Shown here: piece after piece, positions 345 to 64,000 of the stretch
How positions within the stretch are numbered: the first letter of the stretch is position 1
How the letters are laid out: every line of letters begins with the position of its first letter
Source: an uncultured Gemmatimonadaceae bacterium
Lineage (GTDB): Bacteria > Gemmatimonadota > Gemmatimonadetes > Gemmatimonadales > Gemmatimonadaceae
Direction of reading: 5' to 3'
Length of the DNA: 64,000 nt
Assembly (NCBI GenBank): GCA_963829055.1
Contig: CAWHHI010000010.1
Coordinates: forward strand, 96,001-160,000
Translations under genes and position numbers: made by a program
Notes under the pieces: generated by a model
What the model saw: the letters and a program-made list of their open reading frames with translations, nothing else
The model's database searches: none
Told to the model about the DNA's origin: nothing

Positions 345-1168
345 ACGCTGATGTGCTGGGTCAGTTGGCGGACATGCCGAGCTCCTTCGTCACGCGCATT
401 TCCGCCGTGTAGCGCAGCTCGGCGAACCGCACGAGGAGGTCCGCCTCGGTCACTCCGCTGCCGCTCGTCTCCTGTGAGGTCGGCGACGATCATCCCGCGG
501 TGCATCATGATCGTCCGATCGCCGAACCGCACCGCGTGATCCATGCTGTGCGTGACCATGAGCGTCGTGAGCGCGTGCGTGCGGACCACGTGGTCGGTCA
601 CGATCATGATCTGCTCCGCGGCGCGCGGGTCGAGCGCCGCGGTGTGCTCGTCCAGCAACAGGAGCTCCGGACGGGTGAGCGTCGCCATCAGGAGCGTCAC
701 CGCCTGCCGCTGCCCGCCGGACAGCGTCCCCATGGACGCTTCCAGTCGCCCCTCGAGCCGCATACCTAACGACTCCAGCCCGGCCCGGTACCGCTCGAGG
801 CACGCGCGGTCGAGGCCCACCCGCAACCCACGTCGCTTCCCGCGCAACTCGGCCATCCGCAGGTTCTCCGCGACCGTCATCGATGGGCAGGTTCCCTTGA
901 ACGGATCCTGAAAGACACGTCCCACCAGCGCAGCACGCCTGTGCTCCGACCAGCGCGTCACATCCGTGTCCGCAATGCGAATCGTGCCGGCGTCGGTGAG
1001 GTAGGTCCCGGCAATGACGTTCAGGATGGTCGACTTCCCCGATCCGTTGCTGCCGATCACGGTGAGGAACTGGCCGGCGGGAATCGTTAGGCTCACACCA
1101 CGGAGCGCGGGGACACGATCTCCACCCGGCTGGTCGAATGTCTTGTCCAGCGAAGCAACCTCGATCAT
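341..1168 (-). CDS. ABC transporter ATP-binding protein (COG1101 type)
   Basis: Walker A GSNGSGKS, signature LSGGQRQ, Walker B LLLLDEHTAALDP, H-loop VTHS. Confidence 0.95.
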   Translation of the reverse strand: MIEVASLDKTFDQPGGDRVPALRGVSLTIPAGQFLTVIGSNGSGKSTILNVIAGTYLTDAGTIRIADTDVTRWSEHRRAALVGRVFQDPFKGTCPSMTVAENLRMAELRGKRRGLRVGLDRACLERYRAGLESLGMRLEGRLEASMGTLSGGQRQAVTLLMATLTRPELLLLDEHTAALDPRAAEQIMIVTDHVVRTHALTTLMVTHSMDHAVRFGDRTIMMHRGMIVADLTGDERQRSDRGGPPRAVRRAALHGGNARDEGARHVRQLTQHISV

Positions 1169-3110
1169 CGCGTCGCCCCCCGGCGTCGGCCAAAGTTCAG
1201 GTTAGGCAGCGCCAGCGTCGCGAGCACGAACGCCGCGGTCGCGAGCTTGAGGTCGATTGGATTGAGGCCGACGCGGAGCGCCACGCCGATCAGGCCGCGA
1301 AAGACGATCGCGCCCACGGCCACCATCGCGATGGTCGCCCCGAGACGCCAGCGCCGAGGCTTGAGCGTCTCGCCGAGGATCACGGCCGCCATGCCGGCGA
1401 CGAGCGTGCCCACGCCCATGGTGACATCGGCGAACCCTTGGTACTGCGCGATCAGCGCGCCCGAAAACGCCACGAGCCCGTTCGCCAGCGCGAGCGCCAG
1501 CTCCACCATGCCGCGCCGGTCGACGCCCTGCGCGATGATCATCGCTGGATTGTCGCCCGCGGCCCGCATCGCCGTGCCGAAGTCCGTGCGCAGAAACCAC
1601 GTGAACCCCACCCCGAGCACGAGCGTGAGCGCGAGGAACACCGCACCGAACGAGAAGTCGTTAGGCCAGGCGGCAGTGGCCGGCAGCATCGCGTGCAGGC
1701 GAGTCGCAACCGTCGCGCGGTCGAGCAGCGAGATGTTGGATCGTCCCATCACGTGCAGGTTGACCGAGTACAGCGCGGTCATCACCAGAATGCCCGCGAG
1801 TAGTTCGGTGACGCGGAGTCGGGTGTGGAGCACGCCGGTGATGTAGCCCGCCACCATTCCGGCGAAGAACGCCACGACCGTCGCCACGAGTGGATCGACG
1901 CCGCCGGCGACCAGCGTTGCAGCCACCGCGGCGCCGAGCGGAAAGCTTCCGTCGGGAGTGATGTCCGGAAAACGCAGCACCCGCGACGCGATGTAGACTC
2001 CCCATGCGAGCGGAGCAAACGCGAGACCGAGCACCAGCGCGGATAACCAGAATTCCCATGCTGCCGCCGTGCGGTTGCCATCACCGGAGCGCGCGGCCGG
2101 CCTCGGCGCGACGTATCCGACGGTGTCTCCTCCGCGCTTGAGAGGGATGACGGTCGTTGCGCGCGCAATGACTTCCGGCGGAATCGTGACGCCGAAATCG
2201 GCGGCCGCACCGAGATCGACGATCATCTGCGGATTCGCCGAGACGCGAAACGGGATGTTCGCTGGACTCTCGCCACGGATCACGCGAATCATGATCAGCC
2301 CCTGCGCGTACCCGTTGTCGTAAAAGCTCGCGCCGAGCGAGAGCGGCGCACCGACGAATCCGGTGTTGGCAGAGACGACGGGGATGCCCAGCTCGCGCGC
2401 CTGTTTGACGAGCGCCGGAAAGCCGCCGCCGATCATGATGCTCGGGATCTGCATGATCCCACCGGCTCCCTGCGCGCGGAGCGCCTGGACTCCCGTCGCA
2501 ATGTCCTGCGGACTGGTGCAGGCAACGGTCAGGAACCGGATACCGAGTTGTTGTGCCTTCCGCTTGGCCATGTTGACGTAATGCTCGGCAAACGGATCGG
2601 CGGGATCGAACAGCGTGCCCCAGACTTTCGCGGCCGGGAACGTCGAGATCGCGACGGACAGCGCCGAATCGACGGGGAGCGGGATCTCGGCACCGGTGAC
2701 GTTAGGCCGATGTGCCGTGGGGCTCGTGCCAGCGCTGATGATGTAGGGGTTGGCGACCGAGCCGAAGACGATTGGCCGGTCGGTGATGACCTTCATCGCC
2801 GTCTGCGTCGCGACCGATGACATCGTGGCGACCTGCGTGACGCCCTGCTGCAGGAACTCGCGCATGATGAGCGACAGCGTCGGGATGTCGCCCTGGGCGT
2901 TGCGCTCGATGAACGTGATGTTGACGTCGCGGACGAAGCCCGAGTCGGCGAGCGCCTTGTAGAAGCCTTCGCGCGCCGCGTCGAGCTGAGCGACCGAGGA
3001 CACCTGGACGACGCCGACGATCGGTCGTCCGGCGTGTCCGTCGTCGCGGCAGCTCGCGAGAGCGGGATGATGCAAACGAGCCTCAGTGAGACCGCGGCAA
3101 GCGGCTTCAT
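1165..3110 (-). CDS. Fused ABC substrate-binding protein (ABC_sub_bind/COG2984) and permease (COG4120 type). Likely true start ATG 3110, with an indel in the signal peptide.
   Basis: Lipobox LASC; binding-domain motifs ERNAQGD, PIVFGSVANP, NVTG; permease motifs FPDITPDGSFPLG, LLAGILVMTALYSVNL, QYQGFADVTMGVG. Confidence 0.88.
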
Positions 3111-3404
3111 CACGCTATCGGGCGCCGAAACGATTCGTCGAAGGACGCTGCATGCGCGGGATCGAGGCCGAGCGGCTGTGTCATGTTCGCGGAGCTTCGG
3201 GGCGTCGATGGGTGCGGCGTTGGTGGGAGGCGCCGGCAAACCTACGAACGAGCCCGGTAAACTCGCGAGCAGGGCGCTCTCGTAGGTCCAATCCGATCGG
3301 ATCGGACGACTTCTCATCCCTGCGCACCCAGTTTCTGGCCGTTCACCAGGGCGACCCAGTCGCCGACCGAGATTCGCCAACGACCACGAGATAGTGAGGC
3401 ATCC

Positions 3405-4369: not shown

Positions 4370-6820
4370 GTGCCTTCTCTCGTCAGCGATGTCCGCATCG
4401 CGATTCGCCGCGCCCGAAAGCGTCCCGGCTTCACCGTCGTTGCGCTGCTTTCATTGATGCTCGGTATCGGCGCCAACACGGCGGTGTTCAGCCTCGTGAA
4501 CGCGATCCTGCTCCGACACACTCCGGTCCCGCATCCCGAGCAGATCGCCGAAGTCTATCAACGACAGAGCGATTTTCCCTTCGCGCCGTTCTCGTACCCG
4601 GACTACGTCGACTTCCGCCGCGCCTCGGCAGGCACGTTCTCCGAAATCTCCATCTCGCAATTCTCCATCGCCGCGCTCGACGCCGGCGATCACGTCGAGT
4701 CGCTCACCGCGGAGCTGGTGAACGGCGATTACTTCCCGCTACTCGGCCTTCGCGCGCAGGTCGGCCGGCTGCTTGGCCCCGAGGACGACGTGGCACCTGG
4801 AGCGCACCCGGTTGTCGTTCTCTCGCACGACTACTGGCAGCGCGCGTTCGCCAGCGAGCCGACCGTTGTCGGACGCAAGATGCGGCTCGCGGGCCGCGAG
4901 TACACGATCATCGGCGTCGCCCCGGGCACGTACACCGGGACGATCAGCGGCATCGTGCCGGCCGTATTCGCGCCGATCATGATGGTCAACCAGCTACAGC
5001 CGGACGTCCGCGATCAGCTCGCGCAGCGCGGCACTCACTCGGCGTTCCTCAAGGCGCGCCTGGCGCCGGGCGCATCGATCGTGAACGCACGTGGAGTCGC
5101 CGAGCGGTTCACGGCGGATATGGCGAAGCGCTACCCATCGAACTGGCCGGATGGCACGTCGCTGGTCGTGATTCCGATGAAGGACATCGCCGTCAACCCA
5201 CTGGTCGACTCCGTCGTCGTACCTGCGGCGGCGGCCCTGATGGTCGTCGTCGGACTGGTCCTGCTCGTCGCGTGCGCAAATCTCGCGAGCTTTCTCCTGG
5301 CGCAGGCGCGCGATCGGCGGAAGGAAGTCGCCATTCGACTCGCGATCGGCGCGAAGCGGAGTGCGCTCGTCCGACAGTTCCTCGTCGAGTCGTTGCTGCT
5401 CGCCGCTGTCGGTGGTGTGCTCGGCGTCGTGCTGTCCGGCATCGCGCTGCGCATGCTGTTGCGCGCGGACCTGCCGGTACCGATCCCGATCACGCTCGAT
5501 GTCTCGGTCGATTGGCGCGTGCTCGCCTTCGCGTTAGGCGCGTCAGCCGTCGCCGGCGTGTTGTTCGGGTTGCTGCCCGCACTGCAAGCGACCCGTGCGA
5601 CGGTCGTCGAGACGATCAAGAACGAGAACGCCAGCGGTGGCCCGTCGCACAGGTTCACCGTTCGCAATGCGCTCGTCGTTGGACAGGTGGCGGTGTCGCT
5701 GTCATTGCTCATCACAGCGCTCCTGTTTCTCCGCAGCCTCCAGGCGCGTGCGAAGGTCGATCCGGGGTTCGGTACCGCGCCGGCGGGCATGCTCTGGCTC
5801 GCGATTCCGGCCGATCGGTATGACTCGACGCGACGCCAGCTACTGCTCGATGACATTGAACGGCGCATGGCCCGAATCCCGGGCGTCGTGACAGTCGGCG
5901 CGACGGACAACATTCTGCTCAGTTCGATCAGCCAGCAGTCAAAACGCATTCGCGTGCCTGGTGTCACGCCTCCCAAAGGCAAGGATGCGTTCGACGTCGA
6001 TTTCTCCGCCGCCGACTCCGGATATCTCGGAGCGATCGGTGTGTCGGTGATCAGCGGTCGAGGGATCACTGCCGCCGACAGTCGGAGCGCGCCCAAGGTG
6101 GCCGTCATCAACGAAGCGATGGCGCGGCAGTTCTGGCCAGGCAAAGAGGCGATCGGCCAAACCTTCAACACCGATTCGAGCGTGTACCGCGTCGTCGGCA
6201 TCACGCGGACGACGAAGGTTCGCTCGCTCGGCGAGGAGCCACGGCCGTTCATCATCACGTCGTACGCGCAGGAGTTTTCGGCGACGCCGATGATCATCGC
6301 GCGCACCAACGGCGACGCCGATCGCGTCGCGACGCAGATGCTCGCGACGCTTCGTGAGATCGACCCCGGCCTGATGGCGATTCAGGTCAAGACGATGTCA
6401 CGCCACCTTGCCGCAATGCTGCTCCCCGCGCGGCTGGGCGCAATCGCGTTCACGCTCTTCGCGGGGCTCGCGCTCGCGCTGGCCGTTCTCGGCGTCTACG
6501 GCGTGGTCAGCTACGCCGTGGCGCGACGCACACGCGAGGTCGGTATTCGGCTGGCCGTAGGCGCGCAGCCGCACGCCCTCGTGAGACTTCTCATGCGCGA
6601 AGGCGTCGGCCTCGTGACCGCCGGCATTGTGCTCGGACTGCTGCTCGGCTTCGGCAGCGCTCAGGTTCTCGGTTCACTGCTGTATGGCATCGGGGCGGTG
6701 GACCCGCTCACGTTCGTCGGCGCTCCAGTATTGCTGATGCTCGTCGGGGCACTCGCTGCTTTTCTGCCAGCTCGCCGAGCGAGTCGCGTCGATCCAGCGA
6801 GCGTGCTTCGCGCGGAGTGA
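4370..6820 (+). CDS. ADOP/MacB-like duplicated ABC permease (MacB_PCD + FtsX domains)
   Basis: RPGFTVVALLSLMLGIGANTAVFS, LLVACANLASFLLA, RRTREVGIRLAVGA, PARRASRVDP; GTG at 4370 after GGAG. Confidence 0.93.
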   Translation: MPSLVSDVRIAIRRARKRPGFTVVALLSLMLGIGANTAVFSLVNAILLRHTPVPHPEQIAEVYQRQSDFPFAPFSYPDYVDFRRASAGTFSEISISQFSIAALDAGDHVESLTAELVNGDYFPLLGLRAQVGRLLGPEDDVAPGAHPVVVLSHDYWQRAFASEPTVVGRKMRLAGREYTIIGVAPGTYTGTISGIVPAVFAPIMMVNQLQPDVRDQLAQRGTHSAFLKARLAPGASIVNARGVAERFTADMAKRYPSNWPDGTSLVVIPMKDIAVNPLVDSVVVPAAAALMVVVGLVLLVACANLASFLLAQARDRRKEVAIRLAIGAKRSALVRQFLVESLLLAAVGGVLGVVLSGIALRMLLRADLPVPIPITLDVSVDWRVLAFALGASAVAGVLFGLLPALQATRATVVETIKNENASGGPSHRFTVRNALVVGQVAVSLSLLITALLFLRSLQARAKVDPGFGTAPAGMLWLAIPADRYDSTRRQLLLDDIERRMARIPGVVTVGATDNILLSSISQQSKRIRVPGVTPPKGKDAFDVDFSAADSGYLGAIGVSVISGRGITAADSRSAPKVAVINEAMARQFWPGKEAIGQTFNTDSSVYRVVGITRTTKVRSLGEEPRPFIITSYAQEFSATPMIIARTNGDADRVATQMLATLREIDPGLMAIQVKTMSRHLAAMLLPARLGAIAFTLFAGLALALAVLGVYGVVSYAVARRTREVGIRLAVGAQPHALVRLLMREGVGLVTAGIVLGLLLGFGSAQVLGSLLYGIGAVDPLTFVGAPVLLMLVGALAAFLPARRASRVDPASVLRAE

Positions 6821-6873: not shown

Positions 6874-9800
6874 TCATTGGCGTTCGCGGCGACGCAGCGC
6901 GTCGAGATCCTCGCGCTCCTGCACCCAGAACGGCTTCGGAAACTTGCGCGCCGACGGCCAGACGCGATCGAGCGTCGCCGCCTCGAACAGCTCGCCGTTC
7001 TTCATCACGTATTTGATCGAGGTCGAGTTGCGGATGTTCTCGAGCGGATTCGCGTCGAGCACCTGCAGGTCGGCCAGCTTGCCCGGCTCGATCGAGCCCA
7101 GGTCGGCGCCATAGCCGATCGACTCCGCGCCGTAGATCGTCGCGATGCGGAGCGCTTCCATCGGCGTCATGTCGCCGCTCTGGAGCATCCACAGCTCCCA
7201 GTGCGCGCCGATGCCGTCCTGCTGCCCGTGCGATCCGAGGCCAGCGCGGCCGCCGGCGCGAACCACGTCGCGCACGCCACGGGCGATCGCCGGGAAGTTG
7301 TAATCCTCTTCCACGATCAACGGGCGACGACGTGCCTGACGCTGGAGCACGTCCGCGGGGGTGAAGAACGATGTCTTCGGGTCGGTGTCGAGGTCCGTTC
7401 GCGCGCGCCAGTACGTGTCGCCTCCCGGCGCCCCGTACGCCACCACGAGGGTCGGCGTCCACACGATCTTCGACTCGGCGAGGACGGTGACGACGTCCTT
7501 GTAGAGCGGTACCTGGCCGATCGAGTGCTCGAGCGCGGTGTAGCCGTCGAGCGCCATGGTGATATCGGCCTTGAGATCCGCCGCGCCCTCGTTGGTCGCG
7601 TTGATCCCCTCGGCCAGCGCCGCCTGCAGGATCCACTGCCGCTGGATGCGGCGCGGCTGCAAATATTGCTTCAACGAGTTCACGCCCTGCGCCTTGTAGC
7701 GCCTAACGATCTTGAGCGCGTCGTCGTAGCTCTTGATCGGCGCGTTGTTGCTCGTGAGCGGGAAGCCGGTGGCGTAGATGCGTGAGCCGACCATCTCGCC
7801 GGCGTCGATCAACTCGCCCCACGCCACGTTCCAGCGCGTGCCGCTCGGGTTGCGCGTGGTGGTGACGCCGTACGCGAGGTTCGACGCGATCGACCACTCC
7901 TGTTCCTCGGGCATCTCGCGGCCCGTCTTCGGGTGCGCGTGGACGTCCACGTAACCCGGGATGATCGTCTTGCCAGTGACGTCGATCACGCGTGCGCCCG
8001 CGGGCGGCGTTAGGCTTGGGCCCACCTGCGCGATGCGGTCGTTCGTCACGAGCACGTCGCCCTTCTCGATGACCTCGTCGCCGCGCATGGTGACGACGCG
8101 CGCGCCGCGAAGCAGCACGCTGCCCTGCGGAACGGCGCGCGGCACCGTGAGCGAGACGACCGCGTGCGTGGTCCCCCACTTCGTCGCGTCGGCGTACTTG
8201 AGGATCGAGTCGGTCGGGGCGCGGTAGATGTGATTGGCGAACGACCAGACGATGGTGCGCCCACCGTCCCCCCAGTCGGCGTAGTTCGCGCCCTCGGTCG
8301 TCAGGCGACGGAGCGGCACCGTCGGCGACGCGAAGTTCACCGTCAGCCCCTCGCTCCCCACGTCGGTGAGCGGGAAGGCGTAGACGTCGTCCCGATCGAG
8401 GACGATGACGCCGCGCCCGTCCGGGGCGACCCGGGCCGTGATGCCGATCGCCTGGCTCGTCGTGATTTTGGCGTGCGTGCGCTTGTCGGATCCGTCGAGC
8501 CGCACCGACACGAGCGCCGTCGTCTGCGTGGCGCTGAAGCCCGGAGTCGCGTTAGGCACGACTTCGGTGTAGTAGACCCGCGCCAGCGCGCCGTTCGTCG
8601 CGGCGGTGACGCCGGCCGGTCCCGTCGTCCCGCCAGACCCGCCGCTCGCCGAGGTGATGCGGGCGGCCGCGCCGCCGTTCGCGCCGACGACGCGCAGCTC
8701 CCCCATCGCGGCGACCCCACCGCCGTCCACCCCCGCCTGGCGTGGTGAGGCGGCGAACACGATCCGGTCGCCTTCCGGCGTCCATCGGGGCCACGACACC
8801 CATGCCCCGTCATTCGTCAGGCGCACCGGCTGGCCGGCGCCGTCGGCGCGCGCCTTCCAGATCGCCCCGCCCGCCGAATCGGACCAGGACGCAAACGCGA
8901 CCCAGCGCCCGTCGGGGGAGAAGCTCGGGTAGTACTCTCGCCCGGTCGCGTTCGTGATCCGGCGCGGCGCGCCAAACGCCAACCCGTCGCGCGTCGCGAC
9001 GTACACCTTCCCGACGGCCGAGAACGCGATCCGCCGCGCGTCCGGCGACTCGGCCACCGTGACGAGCTGGGTCACCTGGACCGGCGCGTCGCTTGCCTTG
9101 AGCGGCACGAAGAGGTGCTGGCCAAGTCCCACCTCCACGTTCGCGGAGAACGGGATCACGCTGACCTGGCGCGTCGCGAGGTCCACCCGCTTGATCTTGC
9201 CGCCGCCGTAGAAGACGACGCTCTTCGAGTCCGGCGTGAACGCGTAGCCGGGGAAGACGTCGTTAGGCGCGTAGCCCTCGGCGTCGTCGCGCTGCGTCTC
9301 GCCGACGAGCCAATGGTCCTCCTGCGTCGTGAGATCGCGGACGCGGAGGGCGGTCTTCGTGCCCGCGCGCGTCGCGTAGACCAGCCATCGGCCGTCGCGG
9401 GACGTGACCGGCCGGTACGCGCCGCCGGAGCTCGCGGTGAGCGCGGTCTCGGTGCCGCGCTCGCGGTCGAAGGCGATGATCTGGTAGGCGGCGAAGTTCT
9501 CGCCGGTGTAGCCGCCGGGATGCGAGCCGAAGTACACCGTGCGGCCGTCCGCGGAGAAGGCGGCGCCGGTGTTCGTCGTCTTTCGCGTCGCGACCGACGG
9601 AAAGAGCTGCACGCCGTTACCGCCACCCACGTGGTAGAGCCAGAGCGGGACGTTCGTGAGGTAGTTCTCCTCCGTCGGGTACGCGCCGAAGCGGCGGACC
9701 ACGACGTATTGCCCGTCGGGAGACCAGCTCGGCGACGACAGCGCGTTGTCGACTTCCTTCGTGATCCTGCGCGCGCCCGTGCCGTCGGCGTTCACGAGCC

Positions 9801-10764: not shown

Positions 10765-11070
10765 CTGACGAGTCCTTCCGATGTTCAGTCGCAATTCATC
10801 ATCGTCCCTGTGGGAACAGGAACTATACCGCGCGTTGTCCGCTGCCCCGCACCCGGCGCCACATACCTCCGCGAATTTCAGGGAAGCGGCGCCTGGTCGA
10901 GCGCCGCGCCGCGACGAAGCGATCTCGGCCGGTCCTCTCGCGCGGGCATCGCCTAACGCGGAGCCGCTACGCGCTGTCGGCGTGCGAGCAGGCGATGGTG
11001 CTCTGGCAGAACGAGCCACGGCGGATACAATATCCTCCTGGAGCACGCCAACTCCCACGGAGCTTGTACC

Positions 11071-13415
<2,345 letters not shown>

Positions 13416-17023: not shown

Positions 17024-17128
17024 TGGGCGTCTGGGTTCGTGACGCGGTGAAGGTCGCGCGATGAAGGCCAGCGCACAACCGAGACGCAGATTCCAGAGGG
17101 CGCTCGATGTTCGTTAGGTATGCGCGTT

Positions 17129-21214: not shown

Positions 21215-21280
21215 CGAGCTGACCTCGACGTGCAACGTCGCCGGAGCCTAACGACTCGGCGACACGTCGAGGTCAGCTCG
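21215..21280. terminator. Hairpin between convergent genes; loop carries GCCTAACG
   Basis: 17-bp perfect stem 21215-21231/21264-21280 plus inner stem GTCGCCG/CGGCGAC. Confidence 0.6.
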
Positions 21281-27831: not shown

Positions 27832-27879
27832 CGAGTCGTCCGACGCGTTAGGATCCCGTATTGCGGCACCCGCCGCGAA

Positions 27880-40853: not shown

Positions 40854-40955
40854 GACTCTCCGCGACAGAGGTGTCGTTCGCCGTCCAGTATCTGGCTCTT
40901 TGCGGACGTTAGGTGGGAATCGGTTGGGGCGCTAGCTCCATGCCATCCTCGAGCG

Positions 40956-41714: not shown

Positions 41715-41819
41715 GCGCCTCCTCCAGCGCCTAACGCCCGAGTGATGGCACTTGCGTGAGCGCCGGTGATCGAGGATAGAATGGCATCGCCCGGGAAGAC
41801 GTCGGCGCGCGGCACCCGA

Positions 41820-42053: not shown

Positions 42054-42147
42054 ACCTCGAGGCTGACGCCTAACGTTCATCGGCCTGTTCCGTCGTAACC
42101 CGACCACCACGGCAACCGCTGATGACGGGACTCAAAGCCGGGCAGCC

Positions 42148-42244: not shown

Positions 42245-42475
42245 GCACTCCTCGCGCTCGAGGTGCGAATAACGCGGGTGCACGTGGCCGAAGCGGTACG
42301 ACTGCCCGGGCACCGGAATCGCATCGACCCCGATCGCTGGCGTCCGCTCATCATGAGCTTCCAGCAGTTCTACGGTCTCGGGGACCGCGTGCAGCCGTCG
42401 ACGCTCGCCGAGATTCCCGAGGAGGCGTATCGGCCGCGCGGGCCGGTCGTGCCTAACGTTACCCAGGCGGCGTGA
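42245..42475 (+). pseudogene. C-terminal fragment of a flavin-reductase-like protein
   Basis: ALEVRITRVHV...NRIDPDRWRPLIMSFQQFYGL...STLAEIPE, recognised from memory as a flavin reductase C-terminus; no start codon or N-terminus. Confidence 0.55.
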
Positions 42476-49278: not shown

Positions 49279-49295
49279 CTGGGGTTCTCGTTAGG

Positions 49296-51719: not shown

Positions 51720-54700
51720 CCGCTGCGGTACTCGGATGGGCTCACGCCGTGCGCCTCGCGGAACGACCGCGAGAAGTGCGACAGGCTCTGAAACCCCACC
51801 GCATACGCCACCTCGGCCACGTTGCCCGCGCCTTCCTTGAGAAGCTGCGCCGCGCGCTCGAGGCGGAGCCGCCGGATGAGGTCAGATGGAGTCTCGCCCA
51901 CCAGCTCACGCGTGCGACGGAACAGGTGTGATCGATCGAGAAAGACATGCTCCGCCAGCTCCGCGACGCCGAACTCCGACTCGGTCAGATGCGCCGCGAT
52001 CGTCGCGTGGAGCCTATCGACGAACGCCTGGTCCGCGGATCCCAACGCGGACTGTGGCGCGGGCGCCGGAAGCTCCACACCCTCGGCCGCAAACCGCTCG
52101 CGAAGGCGTCGCCGAGTCGTGATGAGGTTCTCCACGCGCGCGTCGAGCTCGCGCATCTCGAATGGCTTGGCCAGGTAGTCGTCCGCGCCGACCGCCGAGC
52201 CCGGTCGACCCGGTCGTCGGTCGAGGCCAACGCGGTCAGCAGGATGATCGGAATGAAGTCGGTTTCAGGATCGCTCTTGAGCGTCCGGCAGAGCGCGTTG
52301 CCGTCGATCCCCGGCATCATCACGTCGCTGATCACGAGATCGGGCAGGAGCGACCTGGCTCGCTCGATGCCGTCCCCGCCGTCGCCCGCCTCCACGATCC
52401 GATACCGCGACTCGAAGTGCGATCGGATGTACGCCCGCAGATCGGCGCTGTCGTCGACGATGAGCAGCGTCGTGACGTCGGCTGCGCCGTCAGCACCTCG
52501 CGTCTCGGTCTCGCCGTTGCCGGCGATGGCGTGATCGACTTCCAGCTCGTCCGTTCGTGCCAGCGAGCCTTCAGGTCCGGCGACGATCTGATCATCGCGC
52601 AGATGCGCGCGGCCTAACGGGAGCGTGACGGTGAACGTAGCGCCACCGGCACTCTCGACGGCGATGCTCCCGCCGTGCAGCTCGACCAGCTCTTTGGCGA
52701 GCGCGAGGCCGATGCCGGTGCCCGGCTGCGCGCGCGTGCTCGATTCGTCGACCTGATAGAACCGCTCGAAGACATGCGCCAGGTGCTCGGGCGGAATTCC
52801 TGGTCCGCTATCGATGACGTTGACCCGCGCGATGCTGTCTTCCGTCTCGACGCGCAGGGCGATGCGGCCGCCATCCGGCGTGAACTTGAAGGCGTTCGAG
52901 AGCAGGTTGCCTAACACCTTCTCGAGCGCGTCCGCGTCGAACCAGACATCGATCGGTTCGGGCGGCGCGACGACGTCGAAGTCGATGTGGTTCTGCGCCG
53001 CGATCTGTCCGAAGGCCGCGGCAACGCCGCGCGCAAACGTCACCAGGTCCTGTCGACGCGCGCGGAGCTTCATCTGCCCCGCCTCCAGCTTCGCGACGTC
53101 GAGAATCTGATTCACCAGCCGCAGGAGACGCCGCGAGTTGCGAAGCGCCATGTCGAGCTCCCTCGGCGGCTCGAGGATCGGCTGGTGCTCGACGCGCGCG
53201 CGAAGATCCTCGAGCGGGCCAATCGTCAGGGTCAGCGGCGTTCGGAACTCGTGACTGACGTTGGCGAAGAACCGGGACTTCGCCTGGTCGAGCTCCTTGA
53301 GCTGCTCGGCCTGCAGCTCGAGCTGATGTTGATTCTCGCGCAGCTCGCGCGTCCGCTCATCGACGAGTCGGCCGAGCTCCAGCGCACGTGCGCGAAGATT
53401 TCGAACACGCCATCCAACGAGGCCGGCCACGATGAGGCCGGCGGCCAGCAGCGACAGCAGTCGAAAGCTTCTGGTCTCCCACAGATGCGGCGCCAGATCG
53501 AGCTGGAGCGCCGCGCCCCGCTCGTTCCAGACGCCGTCGTTGTTGCTTGCCGCCACCCGGAACGTGTATCGGCCGGGCGGCACCTTCGTATAGAACGCCG
53601 TGCGACGGTTGCCGGCATCGACCCACGTCGCATCGTATGGCTCGAGTCGATAGCGGAAGCGCACGTTGGCTGGCGCCAGAAAGCTGAGCGCCGTGTACCG
53701 GATCTCGAGATCCCGTTGCGTCGTGCCTAACGATATGCCGTTTCGACCGGCCGGTACCGTCGTTCCGCCCGAGGTGACCTGCTCGACGACGACGTTAGGC
53801 GGAATGGGGTTCCGCCGGATCCGTGCCGGATCGACGACCGCGACACCAGCCTGCGTCGCGAACCAGAGTCGCCCGTCGCGCGATCGGATGGCGGCCGGCT
53901 GCGAGCCACCGTTCGCCTCGCGATTCCGCAGTCCATCCCGCTCGGTGTACGCCGTCGAGTTGATCGTCGGCCGCCGACCCGCCGCAAACTCGAGCAGCTC
54001 GCGACGGTCCACCCAGAAGATCCCGCGGTTGCCGCTCATCCAGAGGCGATCGGCGTCGTCCTCGAGAATGGTGTGGATCACCTCATCGAAGAGCCCGTCG
54101 CGCGCACGCAGCGTGATGATTCGACCGCGCTCGCTTCCCTTCTTCCCAGTCGCGTGGATCGAGGCGCGCGAGCCCGCGACCTTCGGTGCCGACCCAGAGC
54201 CAACCGTCGCGGTCCACGTGGAGCGACCGAACACGATCGAACGGAAGTCCGTCGGCCGTCGTGATCGAGCGGAAGCGCCCGTCCTTGTATCGCAGCAGAC
54301 CGTCGGCGGCAGTTGCCATCCAGAGAGCGCCGTCGCGAGAGCGCTCGAAGGCTCGCACGACTGGTTGCCGGTCGCCGGTGCCGACGCGCGGCGTCGTCCA
54401 CCGATCTCCGTCGAGCCGAAGCAGCCCCACGTCCGATCCAAACCAGAGCACGCCAGTCGAGTCCTCATACATCGCGTGAGCCTGGGCGCGGCGAGCGACG
54501 TCATTCGGAGCGAGCGCGCATTGCATCGTGGTCGGCATGCACTCCAACAGTCCGATGGCGCCGATCCACAGACGCCCGGTGCGGTCTTCCTTGAACGAGA
54601 GCACGACACTCGAGTTCCCAACCGGCGCGACCACGCGCGTGATGCGATCTCCGTCGATGCGGCTCATCCCGCCGTTGAGCGTGCCGATCCACATGGTGCC

Positions 54701-56026: not shown

Positions 56027-57673
56027 ATGATGACACGTCTCAATCCCTACGACGTCGGTCTCGACAAGACTCCCGCGAACTACGCTCCGCTGACGCCACT
56101 CAGCTTTCTCAAGTGGAGCGCGCGCGTATGCCCGGATCGCCTCGCGGTCGTGCACGAGACGCGCCGGTTCACGTGGGCCGAGACCTACGCGCGCGCGCGC
56201 CGGCTGGCCTCCGCGCTCGTGGCCCGAGGGGTAACGACGGGCGACACCGTCGCCACGCTGCTGCCTAACGTGCCGGCGATGTACGAGGCACACTTCGGCG
56301 TGCCGATGACGGGCGCGGTGCTCAACACCCTCAACACACGCCTGGACGCGGCGACCATCCGGTTCATGCTGGAGCATGGCGAGGCGAAGGTGCTCCTCGT
56401 CGACCGCGAGTACGCGAGCCTCGCGGCCACGGCGCTTGCCGGGATCGACTCCCGCCCGCTCGTGATCGACGTCGACGATCCCGCCTACGACGGCGACGGC
56501 AACCCGTTAGGCGAAGTAGAATACGAGGCGCTACTGCGCGACGGCGATCCGGCGTACGACTGGCAGCCGCCGTCAGACGAATGGAACGCGATCTCCCTCA
56601 ACTACACGTCCGGGACCACCGGGAATCCAAAGGGAGTCGTCTACCATCATCGCGGCGCGTATCTCAACGCGATCGGCAACATCCTCTCGTGGAGCATGCC
56701 GCGGTATCCGGTCTATCTCTGGACGTTGCCGATGTTCCACTGCAACGGGTGGTGCTTCCCCTGGAGCATCGCCGCGCAGAGCGGGACGAACGTGTGTCTG
56801 CGGAAGGTCGACGCCGAAGTGATCTTCCGCCTGATCGCCAGGCATCGCGTCACGCACTACTGCGGCGCTCCCATCGTACACAACACACTCACGGGCGCGC
56901 CGCCCGAGATGCGTGAAGGGATCACGCACCGCATCGCGGCGATGGTGGCTGGTGCCTCGCCACCGCCATCGACGATCGAAGCGCTCGAGGCGATCAATAT
57001 CGACCTCACGCACACCTACGGGCTCACCGAGGTCTATGGACCCGCGACCGTGTGCACGAAGCAGGAAGAGTGGGACGATCTCGATCCACACGACCAGGCG
57101 CTTCGCAACGGGCGACAGGGTGTTCCGTATCTGGTCGAGGAAGATGCCGCGGTACTCGACCCCGAGCGCATGGAGCCGGTGCCCGCCGACGGTGAGACCA
57201 TCGGCGAGATCATGTTTCGCGGGAACATCGTGATGAAGGGGTATCTCAAGAACCCGTCCGCCACCGCGAAGGCGTTCGAAGGCGGATGGTTTCACTCGGG
57301 CGATCTCGCCGTCACGCAGCCCGACCAGTACATGAAGATCAAGGACCGCGCGAAGGACATCATCATCTCCGGCGGCGAGAACATCTCGTCACTCGAGGTG
57401 GAGGACGCCCTGCACCGCCATCCGGCCGTGTTCGCCGCGGCGGTGGTGGCGGAGCCGCACGAGAAGTGGGGCGAGACGCCGTGCGCGTTCGTCGAGCTCA
57501 AGCCTAACGCTGTGGTGGCAGAGGGCGACCTCATCGAGCACTGCCGGCAACTCCTCGCGCGCTTCAAGGTGCCGCGCCGCATCGTCTTCGGACCGCTCCC
57601 GAAGACGTCGACGGGGAAGATTCAGAAGTTCATCCTGCGCGAGCGGGCGAAGTCGGCGGCCGCGATCGTCTGA
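56027..57673 (+). CDS. Acyl-CoA synthetase (AMP-binding)
   Basis: YTSGTTGNPKG, YGLTE, WFHSGD, DRAKDIIISGGENI, LPKTSTGKIQK. Confidence 0.95.
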   Translation: MMTRLNPYDVGLDKTPANYAPLTPLSFLKWSARVCPDRLAVVHETRRFTWAETYARARRLASALVARGVTTGDTVATLLPNVPAMYEAHFGVPMTGAVLNTLNTRLDAATIRFMLEHGEAKVLLVDREYASLAATALAGIDSRPLVIDVDDPAYDGDGNPLGEVEYEALLRDGDPAYDWQPPSDEWNAISLNYTSGTTGNPKGVVYHHRGAYLNAIGNILSWSMPRYPVYLWTLPMFHCNGWCFPWSIAAQSGTNVCLRKVDAEVIFRLIARHRVTHYCGAPIVHNTLTGAPPEMREGITHRIAAMVAGASPPPSTIEALEAINIDLTHTYGLTEVYGPATVCTKQEEWDDLDPHDQALRNGRQGVPYLVEEDAAVLDPERMEPVPADGETIGEIMFRGNIVMKGYLKNPSATAKAFEGGWFHSGDLAVTQPDQYMKIKDRAKDIIISGGENISSLEVEDALHRHPAVFAAAVVAEPHEKWGETPCAFVELKPNAVVAEGDLIEHCRQLLARFKVPRRIVFGPLPKTSTGKIQKFILRERAKSAAAIV

Positions 57674-59083: not shown

Positions 59084-61529
59084 CTACTCCGCGCGAAGCG
59101 CTTCCGCCGGGTCGACGTGCGCCGCCCGCCTCGCGGGGAACCAACTCGCCAGCGAGGCCGTCGCGACGAGCACCAGCGCTGCTCCAGCCAGTGTCAGAGG
59201 ATCACTCGGCGTGACGCCATACAGAAATGCTCGCAGGAACGGCGCCGCGATCGCGTAGAGCACGAAACCGGCAGCGACGCCGCTCGCGGTCAACGCCAGT
59301 CCGCGCATCGCGACTGACTGAGCGAGTTGCTGGGGGGAGGCGCCGAGCGCGACGCGCACGCCGAACTCGCGGGTTCTGAGTGCGACCGTGTACGCCATCA
59401 CGCCATACAACCCGATCGTTCCGAGCAGCAGCGTGATCGCGGCCGCAGCCAGTCATGAGCGTCAGCGCCAGCGAGAGACGCGACGTGGACGCGCGGACGA
59501 CGTCGCTCATGGTCTCGACATTGAAGATCGGAACCGTCGGGTCGAGGTCGCGCACAACCCGCCTAACGGCTGCCACCACGGCGGCCGGCGGCCCGGATGT
59601 CCTGACGACGAGCGCCATCGTGTGTCGCGCACTCGGTTCCGTCGTCGGATCGATCGGGACGACCTGGGGCACGTAGACCGTTGCGGACGGTGGCGTGGCC
59701 AGGTCATAGTCGCGCACGTCTCCGACGACGCCGATGATCGTGTATGTCGGTCCCGAAGGCGCCAACCCCAGACGCTTTCCTAACGCGGCCTTGCCGGTGG
59801 GATCCTGCCAGATCGTCGCCGCGGCCCGCTGGCTGATGATCACGTCGCCGTCGCGTTGGAGCCCGAGGCGCTGAAAGCCGCGGCCAGCAACGAGAGGAAT
59901 CCGCATGGTCGCGAAGTATCCGTCGTCGACGACGTTCGTGGGCAGAGACAGCGTTCGCCCTTCGACACGAAACGACTGCTCACGCGTTTCACCGGCGCCA
60001 AGCGGGAGTCGCGTCGTCAGGCCGGCCGCGCGAACACCCGGGAGCTGCCCAGCCAACTCGGTCAGCCGTGCGTAGAAGGCCACGGACGACGAATCGCCAT
60101 AGCGCGCGAACGGCAGTTGGGTCCAGATCGTCACGACGTTGGTGGCGTCGAACCCCGGACGCTCCTGATACAATCGGTGGAAGGTGCGCAGCAACAGCGC
60201 GGATCCCACTGAGACCATGAGCGCCACGGCGATCTGAAGGACGGCAATCGCTGCTCGGAGTCGCTGCCGCGTCCTTCCCGCCGTCTCGCCGCGCCCTCCG
60301 TCACGCAGGTTGATCGAAAGGGTCGCGCGTCGAATACGAATCGTGGGCATCACGCCGCAGATGACCGCCCCCAGAATCGAAATGACGACGGCGAATCCCA
60401 CCGTCGTTAGGCCCGGCCTCAACTCCGCGAGACGAGGGACGTCGGCCGGACCGAACGCCACCAGCGCGTGGACTGCCCCCCACGCCGCGAGGAGCGCGAC
60501 AGCGGCGGCGGCTGCGGTGAGCACGATCGATTCGCCCATGAAATGGGTGGCGATGCGCAGGCGGCTTGCGCCGAGCGCCTCGCGGACCGCGAGCTCGAGT
60601 TGGCGCCCGTCGGCACGGATCAACAGGAGATTGGCGACGTTGGCCCACGCGACGAGCAACACGAGGCCCGCGGCGGCGGCCAGCATCCACAGCGTACGCG
60701 CGATTCCGCTCGTGACCTCGTCGCGCAACGGAAGCACGATGGGCCTGGGGTTCGCCTGATCGAGCCACTCCGCCGTCGCCGTTCCCGATTCCAGACGCGG
60801 GAACGACTCGGCCATTCGTGGCAGCACGTCCGCGAGCTCGCGCTGCGCCTGCTGGAGTGTGGCGTTAGGCGCGAGCCGCGCCACACTCGAGTAGGTGAAG
60901 TCTCCCAACGCCGGGCTGCTCTGATCGAGCCTCACGGGGAGCCAGAGCCGCGTGTCGGCCGCCGGGAAGACGAACCGCTCCGGCATGACGCCGACAATTT
61001 CACGCGGGACGCTGTTGGCGATCAGCGTCTTTCCGATGACGTCGCGAGCCGCGTTGAAGCGCGTTCGCCACAGGGACTCGCTCAGGATGACGGCGTTCGG
61101 ACCGTTCAGCCGCTCCTCATCCGTCGTGAACGAGCGACCGAGAAGCGGCCTCACCTGAAGGAGTGGGATCATCGACGCGGTCACCCACGTCGCGGTCACG
61201 CGCTCGGGGAGGTCGTCGCCGTCACCCATCCAGATATTGGCGTTGCCGGTTCTATAGAAGCCGACATCGTCGAGACGTCGCGCGAAGCGCCTGTAGGTGA
61301 AGTAGACACCGGGCGGCTGCTGTATGCGGCGGAGCTCGGTCGTTTGCAGGCCGACGCTGACCAGGCGATCCGGGTGTCCGTACGGCAGCGGCTCGAGCAA
61401 CACGCCATACACGATGGCGAACATCGACGTGACCGAGCCGATACCGAGAACGAGTGTGAGGATCACCGCGACGGTGAACACCGGCGTGCGCTTCAGTGAT
61501 CTCAACGCGTGTCGGAGCGAAGTCGGCAT
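59084..61529 (-). CDS. ADOP/MacB-like duplicated ABC permease (frameshift near 59450)
   Basis: TPVFTVAVILTLVLGIG, NVANLLL, RTREFGVRVALGA, PARRAAHVDPAEALRAE. Confidence 0.92.
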
Positions 61530-61774
61530 GATCAGCTCATTGCTTTCTTCACGAGTGCGCCGATACGTGCTTCTCGGCGAAGCACCTAACGCCTTGACTC
61601 AGTATGATCTGGTGACGAACCGAACGCACATTGCCTGTCGACGCACCGTCACTGCGCCCTAGATTGGGCTCATTGCCGCCCGAGCGGTAGGACTTCCCAA
61701 AGATTCTGCTCCCGCCCCCTCACGCGGCGATCATCGGTTCGTGCAGATCGCCCGGATAATCCAGGTATCGAGGT

Positions 61775-63100
61775 ATGCGCAGACTCCCCCTCCTCATCGC
61801 GGTGCTCGCTCTCACGGACGGCGCCGTCGGAGCGCAGCAACCGTCGCTCCCGACACCGCCACGAGGACACCCGATCTTGCCCGCGCCGGAATCACCGCGC
61901 ATGGCTGAGCTCCGTGAACGATTGCGGCGCGGCGACTCGACAGCGCTCGCGACATTCTGGACGCGCGCCGCGTCCGAGCGGACACCGATCATCGAGACCA
62001 TTCCTGGAGATAGCGCTCGCGTTCTCGCGACATTCGTGTACCGGGACACCACACCGCTGTCGAATGTCGTCATCTCCGGCGGCGTCGCAGGCTGGGTCGA
62101 TGCGCTCACCGTGATGGAACACGTGGCCGGCACCGACCTGTGGTACAAGAGCGTTCCCGTGCGGAAGGACATACGCATCGGTATCAGTTCCGGAAGAACG
62201 ACTCCCTGTTCCCGTGGTTCGTGGATCCGAACTTCGCCAAACGCTGGGCCGCGGGGTTTGCGGATCCGCTGAACCCGAAGGTCGAAGCGCTTCCTGCGGG
62301 ACCACGTTCGGCATTCGACGCGGCCGTCGCCCACGCACGCAGCCGTGGGACGCGGTCCGCCGGGGCCGCGCCGGCAAGCTGAGCGCCGCCACGTTCACCA
62401 GCTCACACGGCACGAGCAGCGCGATCTCTGGAAGTACACGCCACCGGTTACGACACCACGGCAGCACGGCGAGCGGGTGGCCTGCCAGATCTCGTGCGTT
62501 TGACGGTGGCGCGTGTACGGGACGCCTGGTGCCACACCGCACCATCCTCGACAACATGCTCGCCGATCGTCGGATCGCGCCGATCATCGTCGTGCTTCAT
62601 CGCCAACGGTAGCCAGCGGATGCAGGAGCTTGCCGCGAATCCAGACTTCGCCGACTTCGTCGCCGATGAAGTGATGCCGTGGGTTCGTCAACGTTATGCG
62701 GTGACGTCATCTCCAGGGAAAACAGCGATCGGCGGATCGAGTCACGGCGCCCAGGCAACGTCGTGGCGCTCCGCTACCCGGGGCTGTTCGGCCAGGTGAT
62801 CTCGCAGTCCGCGTCGCAGGTGGGGGCCCGAGGGCGAGGACGGCGAGTGGCTTCGCGCCGTCGCGACGATCGCAAGCTCCCGGTGCGGTTCTACAGGGGT
62901 CGGAGTCTACGAGACGGATCGCTCGGCCAACCAGGGGCCGGGCCAGGTGTGGCCAAACCGTCACTTCCGTGACGTGCTGCGAGCGAAGGGATACGACGTC
63001 GACTATCGCGAGTTCGCCGAAGCGCACGAGTACCTCAACGGCGCGGGACGATCACGAGGCACTCATGCCGATCTTCCCGGCGCCGCATCGCGATCGGCCA
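61775..63100 (+). CDS. Enterochelin-esterase (Fes)-like alpha/beta hydrolase, heavily frameshifted (end approximate)
   Basis: Signal peptide, TPIIE, GTDLWY, DPLNP, ILDNMLA, FADFVADEVMPWVR, GGSSHG, NRHFRDVLRAKGY. Confidence 0.7.
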
Positions 63101-63122
63101 ACTCGCACGGAATTTCAGCGCC

Positions 63123-64000
63123 TTACTCCCCGTACGGCACCCAGATGTTCTTGACCTGCGTCGCCTCGCGGAGGAACTCGCGCCCTTCCCCGTGACGCGC
63201 GTCGAGCCAGTCGCGGCGCTGCCACGTCGCCCACGTCCGCTTCATGTTCACCGCCGACGCCTCCTCGACCAGCTTCACGCCGGCCGCGGCACCGAAGTAC
63301 CAGACCGCCTCCACGTCATCATGCTCGGCAAGCACGCGCGCGAGCGCGTCCTTCGCGCCGGTGACGATGTTGACGACTCCAGCCGGCACGTCCGACGTCT
63401 CGAGCACGCTGTAGAAGTCCGTGGCGGAGAGTGGCATGCGGCTCCGACGGGATCACCACCGTCGCGTTTCCCATCGCGATCGCCGGCGCGACGAGCGAGA
63501 TGAGGCCGAGCAGCGGACGCTCGGAGGGGCACGCGATGCCGACGACGCCGATCGGCTCGTTCATCGCGAGCGCGACGCCGCGGATCGGCACGTTATGCAC
63601 GGCGCCGTCGTACTTGTCCGCCCACGCGGCGTACGTGAACAGCCGCGAGATCGACGCGTCCACTTCACGCGACGCCTCGATCTCGCCGCAGCCGGTCTGG
63701 GCATCTACTCGCCGCGCGAACTCCTCGGCGCGCGCCGCCAGGTTCTCCCCGATGTAGAACAGGATCTGTGCGCGCAGGTGCCCGGTCGCCTTCCCCCACC
63801 CCTTCCACGCCGAGTGGGCGGCCTCGACGGCGTTGCGGATGTCCTTGCGGTTGCCTTCGCCAACCTCTCCGATCAGCGCCCCGTTAGGCGCGTGAACGCG
63901 GCGGACATGCCCCTGGTCGGGGCGCGTCTGCTTACCGCCGATGAACAGCTTGGGGGTACGGTTGATGGCTGGAACCCGTAGCGGTCGGCGACCGTCGTGC
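63123..64000 (-). CDS. Large aldehyde dehydrogenase (ALDH16-like), C-terminal part
   Basis: RTPKLFIGGKQTRPD, YAAWADKYDG, EPIGVVGI, VPAGVVNIVTG, TQVKNIWVPYGE. Confidence 0.88.

Follow-up and report, generated by a model that had tools for sequence, protein, structure and literature searches.

An Octamer Iterated throughout the Window and the Genome

The DNA considered here is a window of 64,000 nucleotides from an uncultured Gemmatimonadaceae bacterium (assembly G000, contig C10, positions 96,001-160,000), in which protein-coding genes on both strands, including that of an M19 dipeptidase, are interspersed with copies of a non-palindromic octamer, CGTTAGGC (reverse complement GCCTAACG). This word occurs 48 times in the window (25 on the forward and 23 on the reverse strand), whereas dinucleotide-preserving shuffles hold 1.23 copies on average and five at most, none of 100 shuffles reaching 48, and the zero-order expectation at 66.96% GC is 2.43. 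Its GTTAGG/CCTAAC core is found 64 times (34 forward, 30 reverse) against 5.6 expected, and 64 of the 81 TTAG/CTAA tetramers lie within that core. An earlier note on this DNA had counted the same 48 octamers and 64 cores, estimated two to three octamers by chance, assigned most TTAG/CTAA tetramers to the motif and seen no strand bias (34 versus 30). All of these points were reproduced, and the balance between strands extends to the genome, with 2,547 forward and 2,457 reverse copies.

The assembly comprises 7.78 Mb in 20 contigs with a GC content of 66.7%; it is 86% complete, with an estimated contamination of 3.95%. It holds 5,004 copies of CGTTAGGC, or 0.64 per kb, and the word is present on all 20 contigs, at 0.48-0.80 per kb, rather than being limited to one. 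Against an order-3 Markov model, CGTTAGGC reaches an observed/expected ratio of 19, the highest among 8-mers with at least 300 copies, and by raw count it ranks about 30th of the 65,147 observed 8-mers, its AT-rich centre notwithstanding. Masking the word from the background gives an expectation of 60 copies and hence an 83-fold enrichment. A shuffle retaining the protein sequence and the codon usage of each gene yields 149 ± 13 copies (maximum 177 in 20 shuffles) versus 3,215 observed in called coding sequences, a 21-fold excess. The genome-wide Markov and codon-shuffle counts proposed in the earlier note thus leave the excess standing, and the sequencing artefact that it had also considered is opposed by the presence of the word in seven other independently assembled genomes.

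Part of window positions 28,000-36,000 is held by 20 of 24 listed read runs, from 15 studies of soil, rhizosphere and freshwater sediment. When contigs of four runs were compared with window positions 20,001-40,000, none of 40 listed differences fell inside the 13 copies there, which says little given 1,285 further differences that are unlisted. In the full-text literature, supplementary files excluded, octamer strings were met only as primers or unrelated sequence among the matches listed; no paper joining Gemmatimonadota with a DNA uptake sequence was found, and the matches for Gemmatimonadota together with natural transformation and competence were unrelated, as judged by title and abstract. 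Within the limits of the literature searched, the word appears to be undescribed. It joins the known hyper-abundant words of genomes, as a case from a phylum in which none was known before.

Anatomy of the Word and Its Reading Frames

The word is exactly 8 bp long. Every flanking position of the G000 copies carries at most 0.13 bits, and the flanks display only a weak avoidance of C before the word, a preference for G or A after it, and codon periodicity. Since the flanks are uninformative, the word is not part of a longer repeat, nor is it a mobile element.

Tolerance of change depends on the position within the word. By the masked Markov model, four one-off variants are enriched in G000, namely CGTTAGGT (21-fold), TGTTAGGC (17-fold), CGTTAGGG (14-fold) and CGTTATGC (9-fold), and two inner transitions are mildly so, CGTCAGGC (2.9-fold) and CGCTAGGC (2.7-fold). 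The remaining inner changes lie near 1x or are depleted, for example CGTTAGAC (0.41x) and CGTTAGTC (0.38x). This position-dependent tolerance resembles a protein's specificity profile.

Polarity along the replichore, which the earlier note had singled out for checking, could be followed on contig C16, where the GC skew switches near 550 kb. Here 355 of 639 copies (55.6%, sum of bins) are co-oriented with the skew, which is no more than expected for a G+T-rich word. Strong co-orientation with replication, of the kind associated with Chi or with FtsK-orienting polar sequences (KOPS), was not found on C16, in an assembly of 20 contigs on which the replication origin and terminus are not placed. 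Within genes, sense and antisense use are close to balance as well (1,705 versus 1,490), so the word is not a signal at the RNA level.

Genes were called with a crude self-trained caller, whose 73% coverage of G000 is an underestimate owing to the many frame breaks of the assembly. On this basis, genes contain 3,216 of the copies, and the other 1,788 are in uncalled DNA or at gene edges. Four coding frames are in use: NCG-TTA-GGC (1,282 copies), G-CCT-AAC-G (885), GC-CTA-ACG (605) and C-GTT-AGG-C (423), while the two frames that contain a stop account for only 21 copies. The word harbours 46% of all TTA codons of the genome, 16% of CTA, 11% of CCT and 7% of AGG. The four phases had been named correctly before, as exemplified by the copies at 5532 and 35799 (NCG-TTA-GGC), 2700 (CCT-AAC), 7701 (GTT-AGG) and 1085 (CTA-ACG). 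The accompanying proposal of a force acting on DNA rather than on protein coding is borne out by the use of four frames and both strands, the intergenic copies, the share of TTA codons and the survival of the excess in the codon shuffle.

Spacing of the Copies

The copies of G000 avoid one another. Compared with an exponential distribution, gaps below 20 bp number 10 versus 65 expected, those of 20-50 bp 20 versus 96, and those of 50-100 bp 41 versus 155, giving 71 versus 315 for all gaps below 100 bp. The deficit extends to gaps of 100-200 bp (144 versus 296) and is accompanied by an excess at 400-1,600 bp. It is similar in all orientation pairs below 100 bp (18 for ++, 23 for --, 16 for +- and 14 for -+), and this independence of orientation indicates that neither slippage avoidance nor hairpin pairs are involved. 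Samples of G014 (196 kb), G005 (270 kb) and G004 (240 kb) repeat the short-gap deficit.

The same interference is visible at potential sites. There are 14,245 peptide sites in G000 that could encode the word synonymously, and 3,212 of them (22.5%) do so, with x-P-N-[VADEG] sites reaching 57.7%. The share is 3.5% where the nearest other copy lies within 50 bp, 4.1% at 50-100 bp, 11% at 100-200 bp and 19% at 200-300 bp; it attains 26-32% at 300-2,000 bp and is 5% beyond 4,000 bp. Copies thus exclude each other below about 200-300 bp in any orientation. The spacing and this interference curve together imply that the underlying force acts at the scale of a few hundred bases rather than site by site.

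Origin by Point Substitution and Effects on Proteins

Comparison with relatives, as the earlier note had advised, revealed gain of the word by substitution at orthologous sites. In orthologues of congeners, no indels occur at the sites and the differences consist of substitutions only. Where one genome has a copy, the other has ordinary GC-rich codons, for example CGTCAGGC, CGCTCGGC or CGTTCGGC, with up to four differences. Repetitive extragenic palindromes, miniature inverted-repeat transposable elements and other mobile repeats were ruled out as a source by these substitution-only differences together with the uninformative flanks.

An alignment of G000 with G005 (79 kb in 35 blocks at ≥80% identity, drawn from 270 kb of G005) contains 44 sites common to both genomes, 30 found in G000 only and 17 in G005 only. 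Sites are unchanged in the partner genome for 59% of the G000 copies (44/74) and 72% of the G005 copies (44/61), versus 35% of all aligned 8-mers. Uncalled DNA accounts for 13 of the 47 lineage-specific sites and a gap for one; several of the 33 others alter residues (e.g., N/D, T/E, VA/LG, F/L and A/N). The tally of 9 synonymous versus 24 nonsynonymous sites was made over a window of 4-5 codons, whose size overstates the nonsynonymous class. The protein sequences of G000 bear the same mark: P-N-[ADEGV] occurs at 1.96 times the expectation from amino-acid frequencies versus 1.19-1.20 times in two order controls, and [APST]-L-G at 1.22 times versus 0.98 times in its control. Copies arise through point substitution, some of it changing amino acids, and not through insertion.

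Gene order is strongly shuffled between congeners, as a single 68 kb contig (G005:C325) matches G000 contigs C5, C10, C11 and C20 at 80-92% identity.

Distribution among Relatives

The word was surveyed in 31 genomes of the order. All seven genomes of genus g1 are rich in it (2,501-5,112 copies, 0.35-0.68 per kb), and the highest density, 1.25 per kb (6,360 copies), belongs to G014 of genus g9. G010 (g5) has 605 copies and G030 (g20, another family) has 345, the first 100 listed lying on many contigs and in both orientations. The 194 copies of G018 are near the count of its control word, and the other 20 genomes have 3-65 copies each. These tallies include G013, an unpublished motif-poor genome (9 copies) on which no conclusion depends. 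The seven other motif-rich assemblies consist of 260 to 1,170 contigs each. Sampled sequence of G014 and of G010 again had the word as its top 8-mer by observed/expected ratio, in dispersed copies. The signal had been called lineage-specific beforehand, which agrees with its richness in g1, G014, G010 and G030 versus the 20 poor genomes.

In an RpoB tree, g1 is sister to G014 (support 0.889). This tree holds 16 usable rows, 7 of the 24 rows, a long-branch cluster in which the neighbouring longer gene stood in place of rpoB, and the partial sequence of G007 having been left out; G010 was without a match. A PilB tree of nine genomes pairs g1 with G014 (0.931) and G010 with the motif-poor G008 (0.976), and a tree of PilB, PilT and PilC from eight genomes, without an outgroup, likewise pairs g1 with G014 and G010 with G008 (1.0). 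The word is thereby enriched in at least three separated lineages, g1+g9, g5 and g20, a recurrence that the earlier note did not contain.

G010 also uses a dialect, CGTTWGGC. Its alternative form CGTTTGGC occurs 925 times in this genome and stays at the level of control words in the 30 others; over 118 kb of G010, CGTTTGGC and CGTTAGGC are interleaved in both orientations, with the flank preferences known from G000. Within g1, G003 and G004 have about half the density of the other genomes (0.35-0.40 versus 0.62-0.68 per kb), and in G004 CGTTAGGT is more frequent relative to the perfect word (ratio 0.31 versus 0.17-0.20). The tag may be decaying in these two genomes, or may stand at a lower equilibrium.

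For the M19 dipeptidase of the window, the best relatives are metagenome-assembled genomes of Gemmatimonadota, with up to 64% identity, and the gene content is in keeping with that phylum. Of 80 loci with such relatives, none comes from the motif-rich clade; 76 are without a copy, and the best locus has three copies in 21 kb. The top word of G018, GTCAGATG, was rejected as a dispersed tag of another kind, being made up of clusters of a heptad microsatellite. Units of this microsatellite resemble GTCAGAT/GTCGGAT, often form inverted pairs 40-90 bp apart, and explain the top 8-mers of that genome.

Copy-Free Islands

Three stretches of 31-50 kb in G000 are free of copies, C6:5,440-55,037 (GC 0.699), C11:0-46,789 (0.663) and C6:591,808-623,330 (0.728). 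They carry housekeeping genes, including trp, aro, FtsK and GreA. For C6:25,001-45,000, a search of six congeners found no close orthologue (best 72% identity), and further copies of its housekeeping genes exist at other places in G000. The islands are either acquired DNA or mis-assembled or mis-binned sequence, probably chimeric or mis-binned pieces, or else large acquisitions. As they are foreign or misplaced in either case, the word marks native DNA, and its density could be used as a check of bin purity.

Relation to the Integron Core Site

GTTAGGC fits the canonical integron core GTTRRRY, and GCCTAAC fits RYYYAAC, an identity absent from the earlier note. In G021, a member of another family, the few copies cluster on contig C95, 24 of them in G021:C95:1-20,000 at distances of about 500-650 bp and all but one on one strand. 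Each C95 copy ends an element of roughly 100 nt that starts with GCCTAAC; these elements are the attC sites of a cassette array, in which the octamer forms R'. Judged by copy positions, similar clusters also occur at G021:C80, G021:C43, G019:C3, G023:C113 and G029:C1, and the cassette array of G021 shares a 203 kb contig with ComEC. Pairs of attC type adjoin intI in G007, G012 and G016, and the octamer ends attC in G007 and G012 too. Integron integrases exceed the curated cut-off in 18 of the 31 genomes, G000 included.

The dispersed copies of G000 behave otherwise. A scan of G000 for attC-type pairs returned chance pairs only (156 matches counting both strands), and the copies have no L boxes, no paired inverse core and no excess of inverted pairs at attC distances. 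No cassette array lies beside the intI gene of G000, and the flanks of the copies near it are without attC structure. The distribution of intI among the genomes does not follow that of the word: many motif-poor genomes have the gene, no intact copy was found in G004 or G010, and in G014 it is fragmented. Core variants that GTTRRRY would allow are not clearly enriched, at 0.41x to 2.2x (CGTTGGGC 0.65x, CGTTAGAC 0.41x), and the G010 dialect CGTTTGGC breaks the consensus. The ends of blocks conserved between G000 and G005 are not located at copies either, 3 of 70 lying within 30 bp versus 3.9% at random. The identity of the word with the integron core is an unexplained coincidence, as no test supported a causal link.

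Candidate Machinery

Among methylation genes, no match to PF00145 (C5 methylase), PF01555, PF02384 or Vsr (PF03852) was found in the 86% complete G000. It does encode one D12-class methyltransferase, which occurs in motif-poor genomes, but searches of the motif-rich G014 and of G010 did not find it. At G000:C8:73500-78400, DUF7814, an N6-adenine methyltransferase of the MmeI/Eco57I type and an SNF2 helicase are fused, with several broken frames. An open frame of about 1,000-1,100 aa for the methyltransferase part is present in 30 of 31 genomes, whatever their motif count, and by its sequence the protein is a putative order-wide core methyltransferase-helicase without an assigned role. Neither methyltransferase of G000 co-varies with the word among the 31 genomes.

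Genes for DNA uptake are widespread. ComEC is encoded in all 31 genomes, and the gene of a small ComEA-like HHH_3 protein adjoins pilB-pilT-pilC in genomes rich and poor in the motif alike; further components in G000 are DprA, a PilQ-type secretin and three PilA-like pilins, the pilins found by a regular-expression scan. Given that the uptake machinery is also present in motif-poor relatives, it does not explain the distribution of the word. A co-distributed methyltransferase or competence pilin, both suggested beforehand, did not emerge: no methyltransferase tracks the word among the 31 genomes, and the single pilin tested and the comEA-pil neighbourhood are without co-variation.

Interpretation of the Octamer

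To our knowledge, only two proteobacterial families are established cases of sequence-specific uptake combined with a genomic self-tag. The uptake signal sequences (USS) of Pasteurellaceae and the DNA uptake sequences (DUS) of Neisseriaceae resemble CGTTAGGC in their frequency of about one copy per kb, both orientations, even spacing and origin by point mutation, as well as in the use of several frames, the over-representation of the tripeptides they encode, a lack of copies in DNA without homologues in relatives, enriched one-off variants and dialects. Lineage dialects of DUS were reportedly described by Frye et al. in 2013. They differ from CGTTAGGC, which is found in Gemmatimonadota, is only 8 bp long, has no extended flanks, forms no dyad pairs and is not used in terminators, introduces rare AT-rich codons into a 67% GC genome, and recurs as the same word in separate lineages. 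Findlay & Redfield 2009 (PMC2817400) list, as properties that uptake sequences have in common, abundance, both orientations, even spacing, an origin by mutation and recombination, spread over frames, an approximate doubling of the encoded tripeptides and a lack of copies in genes without homologues, and every property in that list is displayed by CGTTAGGC; a USS spacing of about 1 kb is given in PMC7811141.

On these grounds CGTTAGGC could well be a protein-recognised self-tag of the uptake-sequence kind, kept by biased uptake and recombination, although this preference is a tentative one. From the genomic signature observed, we infer an uptake bias, a receptor and transformation in these uncultured bacteria. 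The suggestion concerns the behaviour of the word rather than a proven membership among USS and DUS, for which biased uptake would be the defining feature. The candidates that the earlier note had left open (an uptake tag, methylation or repair, a nucleoid protein and a recombination core) can be narrowed, an uptake-like tag fitting best because of the even spacing, the tripeptide enrichment, the dialect and the absence from foreign DNA. Briefly, the type IV pilus/ComEA/ComEC machinery of the clade would prefer fragments bearing the word, alleles matching it better would spread more often via transformation and homologous recombination, and the word would build up by point substitution wherever proteins allow. 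One copy per fragment would suffice, leaving copies evenly spaced. Such a benefit of one tag per fragment would lead to mutual exclusion over a few hundred bases, which weighs against a repair drive acting site by site.

Several observations count against an uptake tag. Known USS and DUS are longer than the 8 bp of this word, and transformation is undocumented for Gemmatimonadota in the literature searched. Competence and pilus genes are equally present in motif-poor relatives, and no specificity factor emerged; the solitary pilin at C3:516,829-517,212, the only one tested, has orthologues in motif-poor genomes, and the comEA-pil cluster of motif-rich genomes has no extra gene relative to that of motif-poor ones. 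If the receptor specificity is arbitrary, recurrence in at least three lineages needs an old origin with many losses, or else transfer of the receptor. Selection for any function that requires coverage of the genome would likewise produce even spacing and conservation. No dyad pairs were found in the intergenic DNA of G000, unlike what PMC2817400 gives for DUS and USS.

Coverage of that kind would be expected if the word were the binding or cutting site of an abundant chromosomal protein without a role in uptake, be it nucleoid-associated, a nicking or strand-discrimination factor for repair, or a protein reading a Chi-like recombination signal; natural selection would then retain the word so that no part of the chromosome is far from a site. 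The even spacing, with copies excluding one another below about 200-300 bp in every orientation, the conservation above background, the position-specific tolerance with a dialect differing at one position in G010, and the presence of copies in coding and non-coding DNA alike are all in line with it; yet no candidate protein was found, and the word burdens thousands of sites with rare codons and residue changes that sister lineages manage without. This cost and the word-free sister lineages fit a drive better than a need. Chi and KOPS/AIMS (architecture-imparting sequences) are likewise over-represented non-palindromic 8-mers with a genome-wide role, but such coverage signals are strand-polarised, being co-oriented with replication, and are far less enriched, whereas polarity here is at most 55.6%, measured on one contig with a skew switch, and enrichment is 83-fold. 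A chromosomal protein site seems rather unlikely. A methyltransferase that modifies the word or part of it, coupled to mismatch correction biased towards the modified sequence, might also create and keep the word, as proposed for the HIP1 octamer of cyanobacteria (GCGATCGC). HIP1 shares with it the length, about one copy per kb, genic and intergenic locations, and a function that is unknown or disputed; it is a palindrome linked to methyltransferases, whereas CGTTAGGC is non-palindromic and has no co-varying methyltransferase. The Eco57I/MmeI family, represented in G000 by the SNF2 fusion at C8:73.5-78.4 kb, reads non-palindromic sites of 6-8 bp, methylated motifs can act as uptake tags in Campylobacter, and the D12-class enzyme offers another candidate. 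This explanation is nonetheless improbable, since the fused enzyme is present in nearly all relatives regardless of the motif, the D12 enzyme is not found in G014 or G010, the other methylase families searched for were not found in the 86% complete G000, site-by-site drive predicts Poisson spacing instead of mutual exclusion, and several one-off neighbours are enriched rather than depleted.

A link to integrons or another tyrosine recombinase, with dispersed copies used by IntI or a relative as attG-like entry or exit points or as decoys, would account for the match to GTTRRRY and for the octamer as R' of relatives' attC sites; integrases occur in 18 of the 31 genomes, and a recogniser shared across the order would explain recurrence in separate lineages. 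It is quite improbable, given copies that lack hairpin partners, arrays, L boxes and insertion scars, that arose by substitution inside conserved genes, and that follow neither intI nor the variants allowed by the consensus, which the G010 dialect breaks. Published attG sites are dispersed like the word, but according to the preprint (bioRxiv 10.1101/2022.09.11.507474) their consensus requires only GWT, and the ends of conserved G000-G005 blocks show no proximity to copies. In a variant that we regard as highly improbable, the self-tag would deliberately equal the integron core, so that uptake favours the R box at the end of each cassette of the order's many chromosomal integrons and imports cassette arrays along with self DNA, or the dispersed cores would serve as entry and exit points of the integrase; in its R-box version, natural transformation would be coupled to the capture of integron cassettes. 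Artefact, chance composition or a short mobile repeat can hardly be credited. The G000 assembly does have many frame breaks, and its motif-free segments are maybe chimeric; against this stand the high density in seven other assemblies, nulls exceeded 20-80-fold throughout, unconserved flanks and frame-breaking gaps that are not concentrated at copies (13 of 391 within 10 bp, a zone of 3.3% of columns), so that such origins are already refuted within the reach of the present data.

If CGTTAGGC is an uptake tag, uncultured soil Gemmatimonadota would supply a third case showing the complete genomic signature, with a dialect as well, and this would show that such tags evolve repeatedly. The word would also provide a marker for native versus foreign or mis-binned DNA in these genomes, and the share of transformation in shaping soil bacterial genomes would become testable. 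The skew that the word imposes on codon usage, with nearly half of all TTA codons, and on protein sequence is relevant to annotation and to codon-based inference.

Copies in the Window

Table 1. Full octamers and additional cores in the 64,000-nucleotide window, with reading frames and the state of orthologous places in other genomes.
Feature	Position	Strand	Remarks
CGTTAGGC copy	1085..1092	+	- strand gene 344-1168 reads xGC-CTA-ACG
CGTTAGGC copy	1659..1666	+	
CGTTAGGC copy	2700..2707	+	- strand gene 1168-3075 reads xxG-CCT-AAC-G
CGTTAGGC copy	5532..5539	+	+ strand gene 4370-6817 reads NCG-TTA-GGC
CGTTAGGC copy	7701..7708	-	- strand gene 6877-10158 reads xxC-GTT-AGG-C; orthologous place in G005 and G002 without copy (3 differences)
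CGTTAGGC copy	8008..8015	+	common to G005, not G002
CGTTAGGC copy	8550..8557	+	CGTTAGGT at this place in G005
CGTTAGGC copy	9261..9268	+	common to G005
CGTTAGGC copy	10951..10958	-	
CGTTAGGC copy	11417..11424	+	common to G002
CGTTAGGC copy	12630..12637	+	common to G002
CGTTAGGC copy	14059..14066	-	differs in orthologues
CGTTAGGC copy	14756..14763	-	common to G002; one-off in G005
CGTTAGGC copy	15166..15173	+	kept in G005, G002, G001
CGTTAGGC copy	16255..16262	+	kept in G005, G002, G001
CGTTAGGC copy	19647..19654	-	
CGTTAGGC copy	21246..21253	-	
CGTTAGGC copy	22080..22087	+	
CGTTAGGC copy	23804..23811	+	
CGTTAGGC copy	23937..23944	+	
CGTTAGGC copy	26671..26678	-	
CGTTAGGC copy	27414..27421	+	
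CGTTAGGC copy	27826..27833	-	
CGTTAGGC copy	28322..28329	-	
CGTTAGGC copy	30445..30452	+	
CGTTAGGC copy	30547..30554	+	
CGTTAGGC copy	31328..31335	+	
CGTTAGGC copy	31430..31437	-	
CGTTAGGC copy	35799..35806	+	+ strand gene 35315-36583 (M19 dipeptidase) reads NCG-TTA-GGC
CGTTAGGC copy	41729..41736	-	
CGTTAGGC copy	42068..42075	-	
CGTTAGGC copy	42451..42458	-	
CGTTAGGC copy	45103..45110	-	
CGTTAGGC copy	45770..45777	-	
CGTTAGGC copy	47015..47022	-	
CGTTAGGC copy	47992..47999	-	
CGTTAGGC copy	49784..49791	+	
CGTTAGGC copy	50047..50054	-	
CGTTAGGC copy	52612..52619	-	
CGTTAGGC copy	53725..53732	-	
CGTTAGGC copy	53793..53800	+	
CGTTAGGC copy	56263..56270	-	
CGTTAGGC copy	56505..56512	+	
CGTTAGGC copy	57502..57509	-	
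CGTTAGGC copy	59561..59568	-	
CGTTAGGC copy	60405..60412	+	
CGTTAGGC copy	60863..60870	+	
CGTTAGGC copy	63882..63889	+	
GTTAGG core, one-off variant	765..770	-	flank unlike full octamer
GTTAGG core, one-off variant	1201..1206	+	
GTTAGG core, one-off variant	11983..11988	-	
GTTAGG core, one-off variant	13348..13353	+	
GTTAGG core, one-off variant	14546..14551	+	
GTTAGG core, one-off variant	17113..17118	+	
GTTAGG core, one-off variant	21872..21877	-	
GTTAGG core, one-off variant	22940..22945	+	
GTTAGG core, one-off variant	27847..27852	+	
GTTAGG core, one-off variant	28425..28430	+	
GTTAGG core, one-off variant	33892..33897	-	
GTTAGG core, one-off variant	40908..40913	+	
GTTAGG core, one-off variant	49290..49295	+	
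GTTAGG core, one-off variant	52910..52915	-	
GTTAGG core, one-off variant	59779..59784	-	
GTTAGG core, one-off variant	61585..61590	-	

Some genes of the window are split. The gamma-glutamyltranspeptidase at 22115-23618 is divided into two overlapping open reading frames, and the DPP-IV/S9 peptidase at 11071-13795 has its N and C domains in different frames; elsewhere in G000, the chorismate synthase gene (C6:21580-22801) is split by a frame break. Such genes suggest indel errors in the 20-contig assembly, or pseudogenes. The orientation of the octamers also differs along the window, with 19 forward and 10 reverse copies up to position 38,000 and 6 forward and 13 reverse copies beyond it, which is probably a local effect of gene strand.

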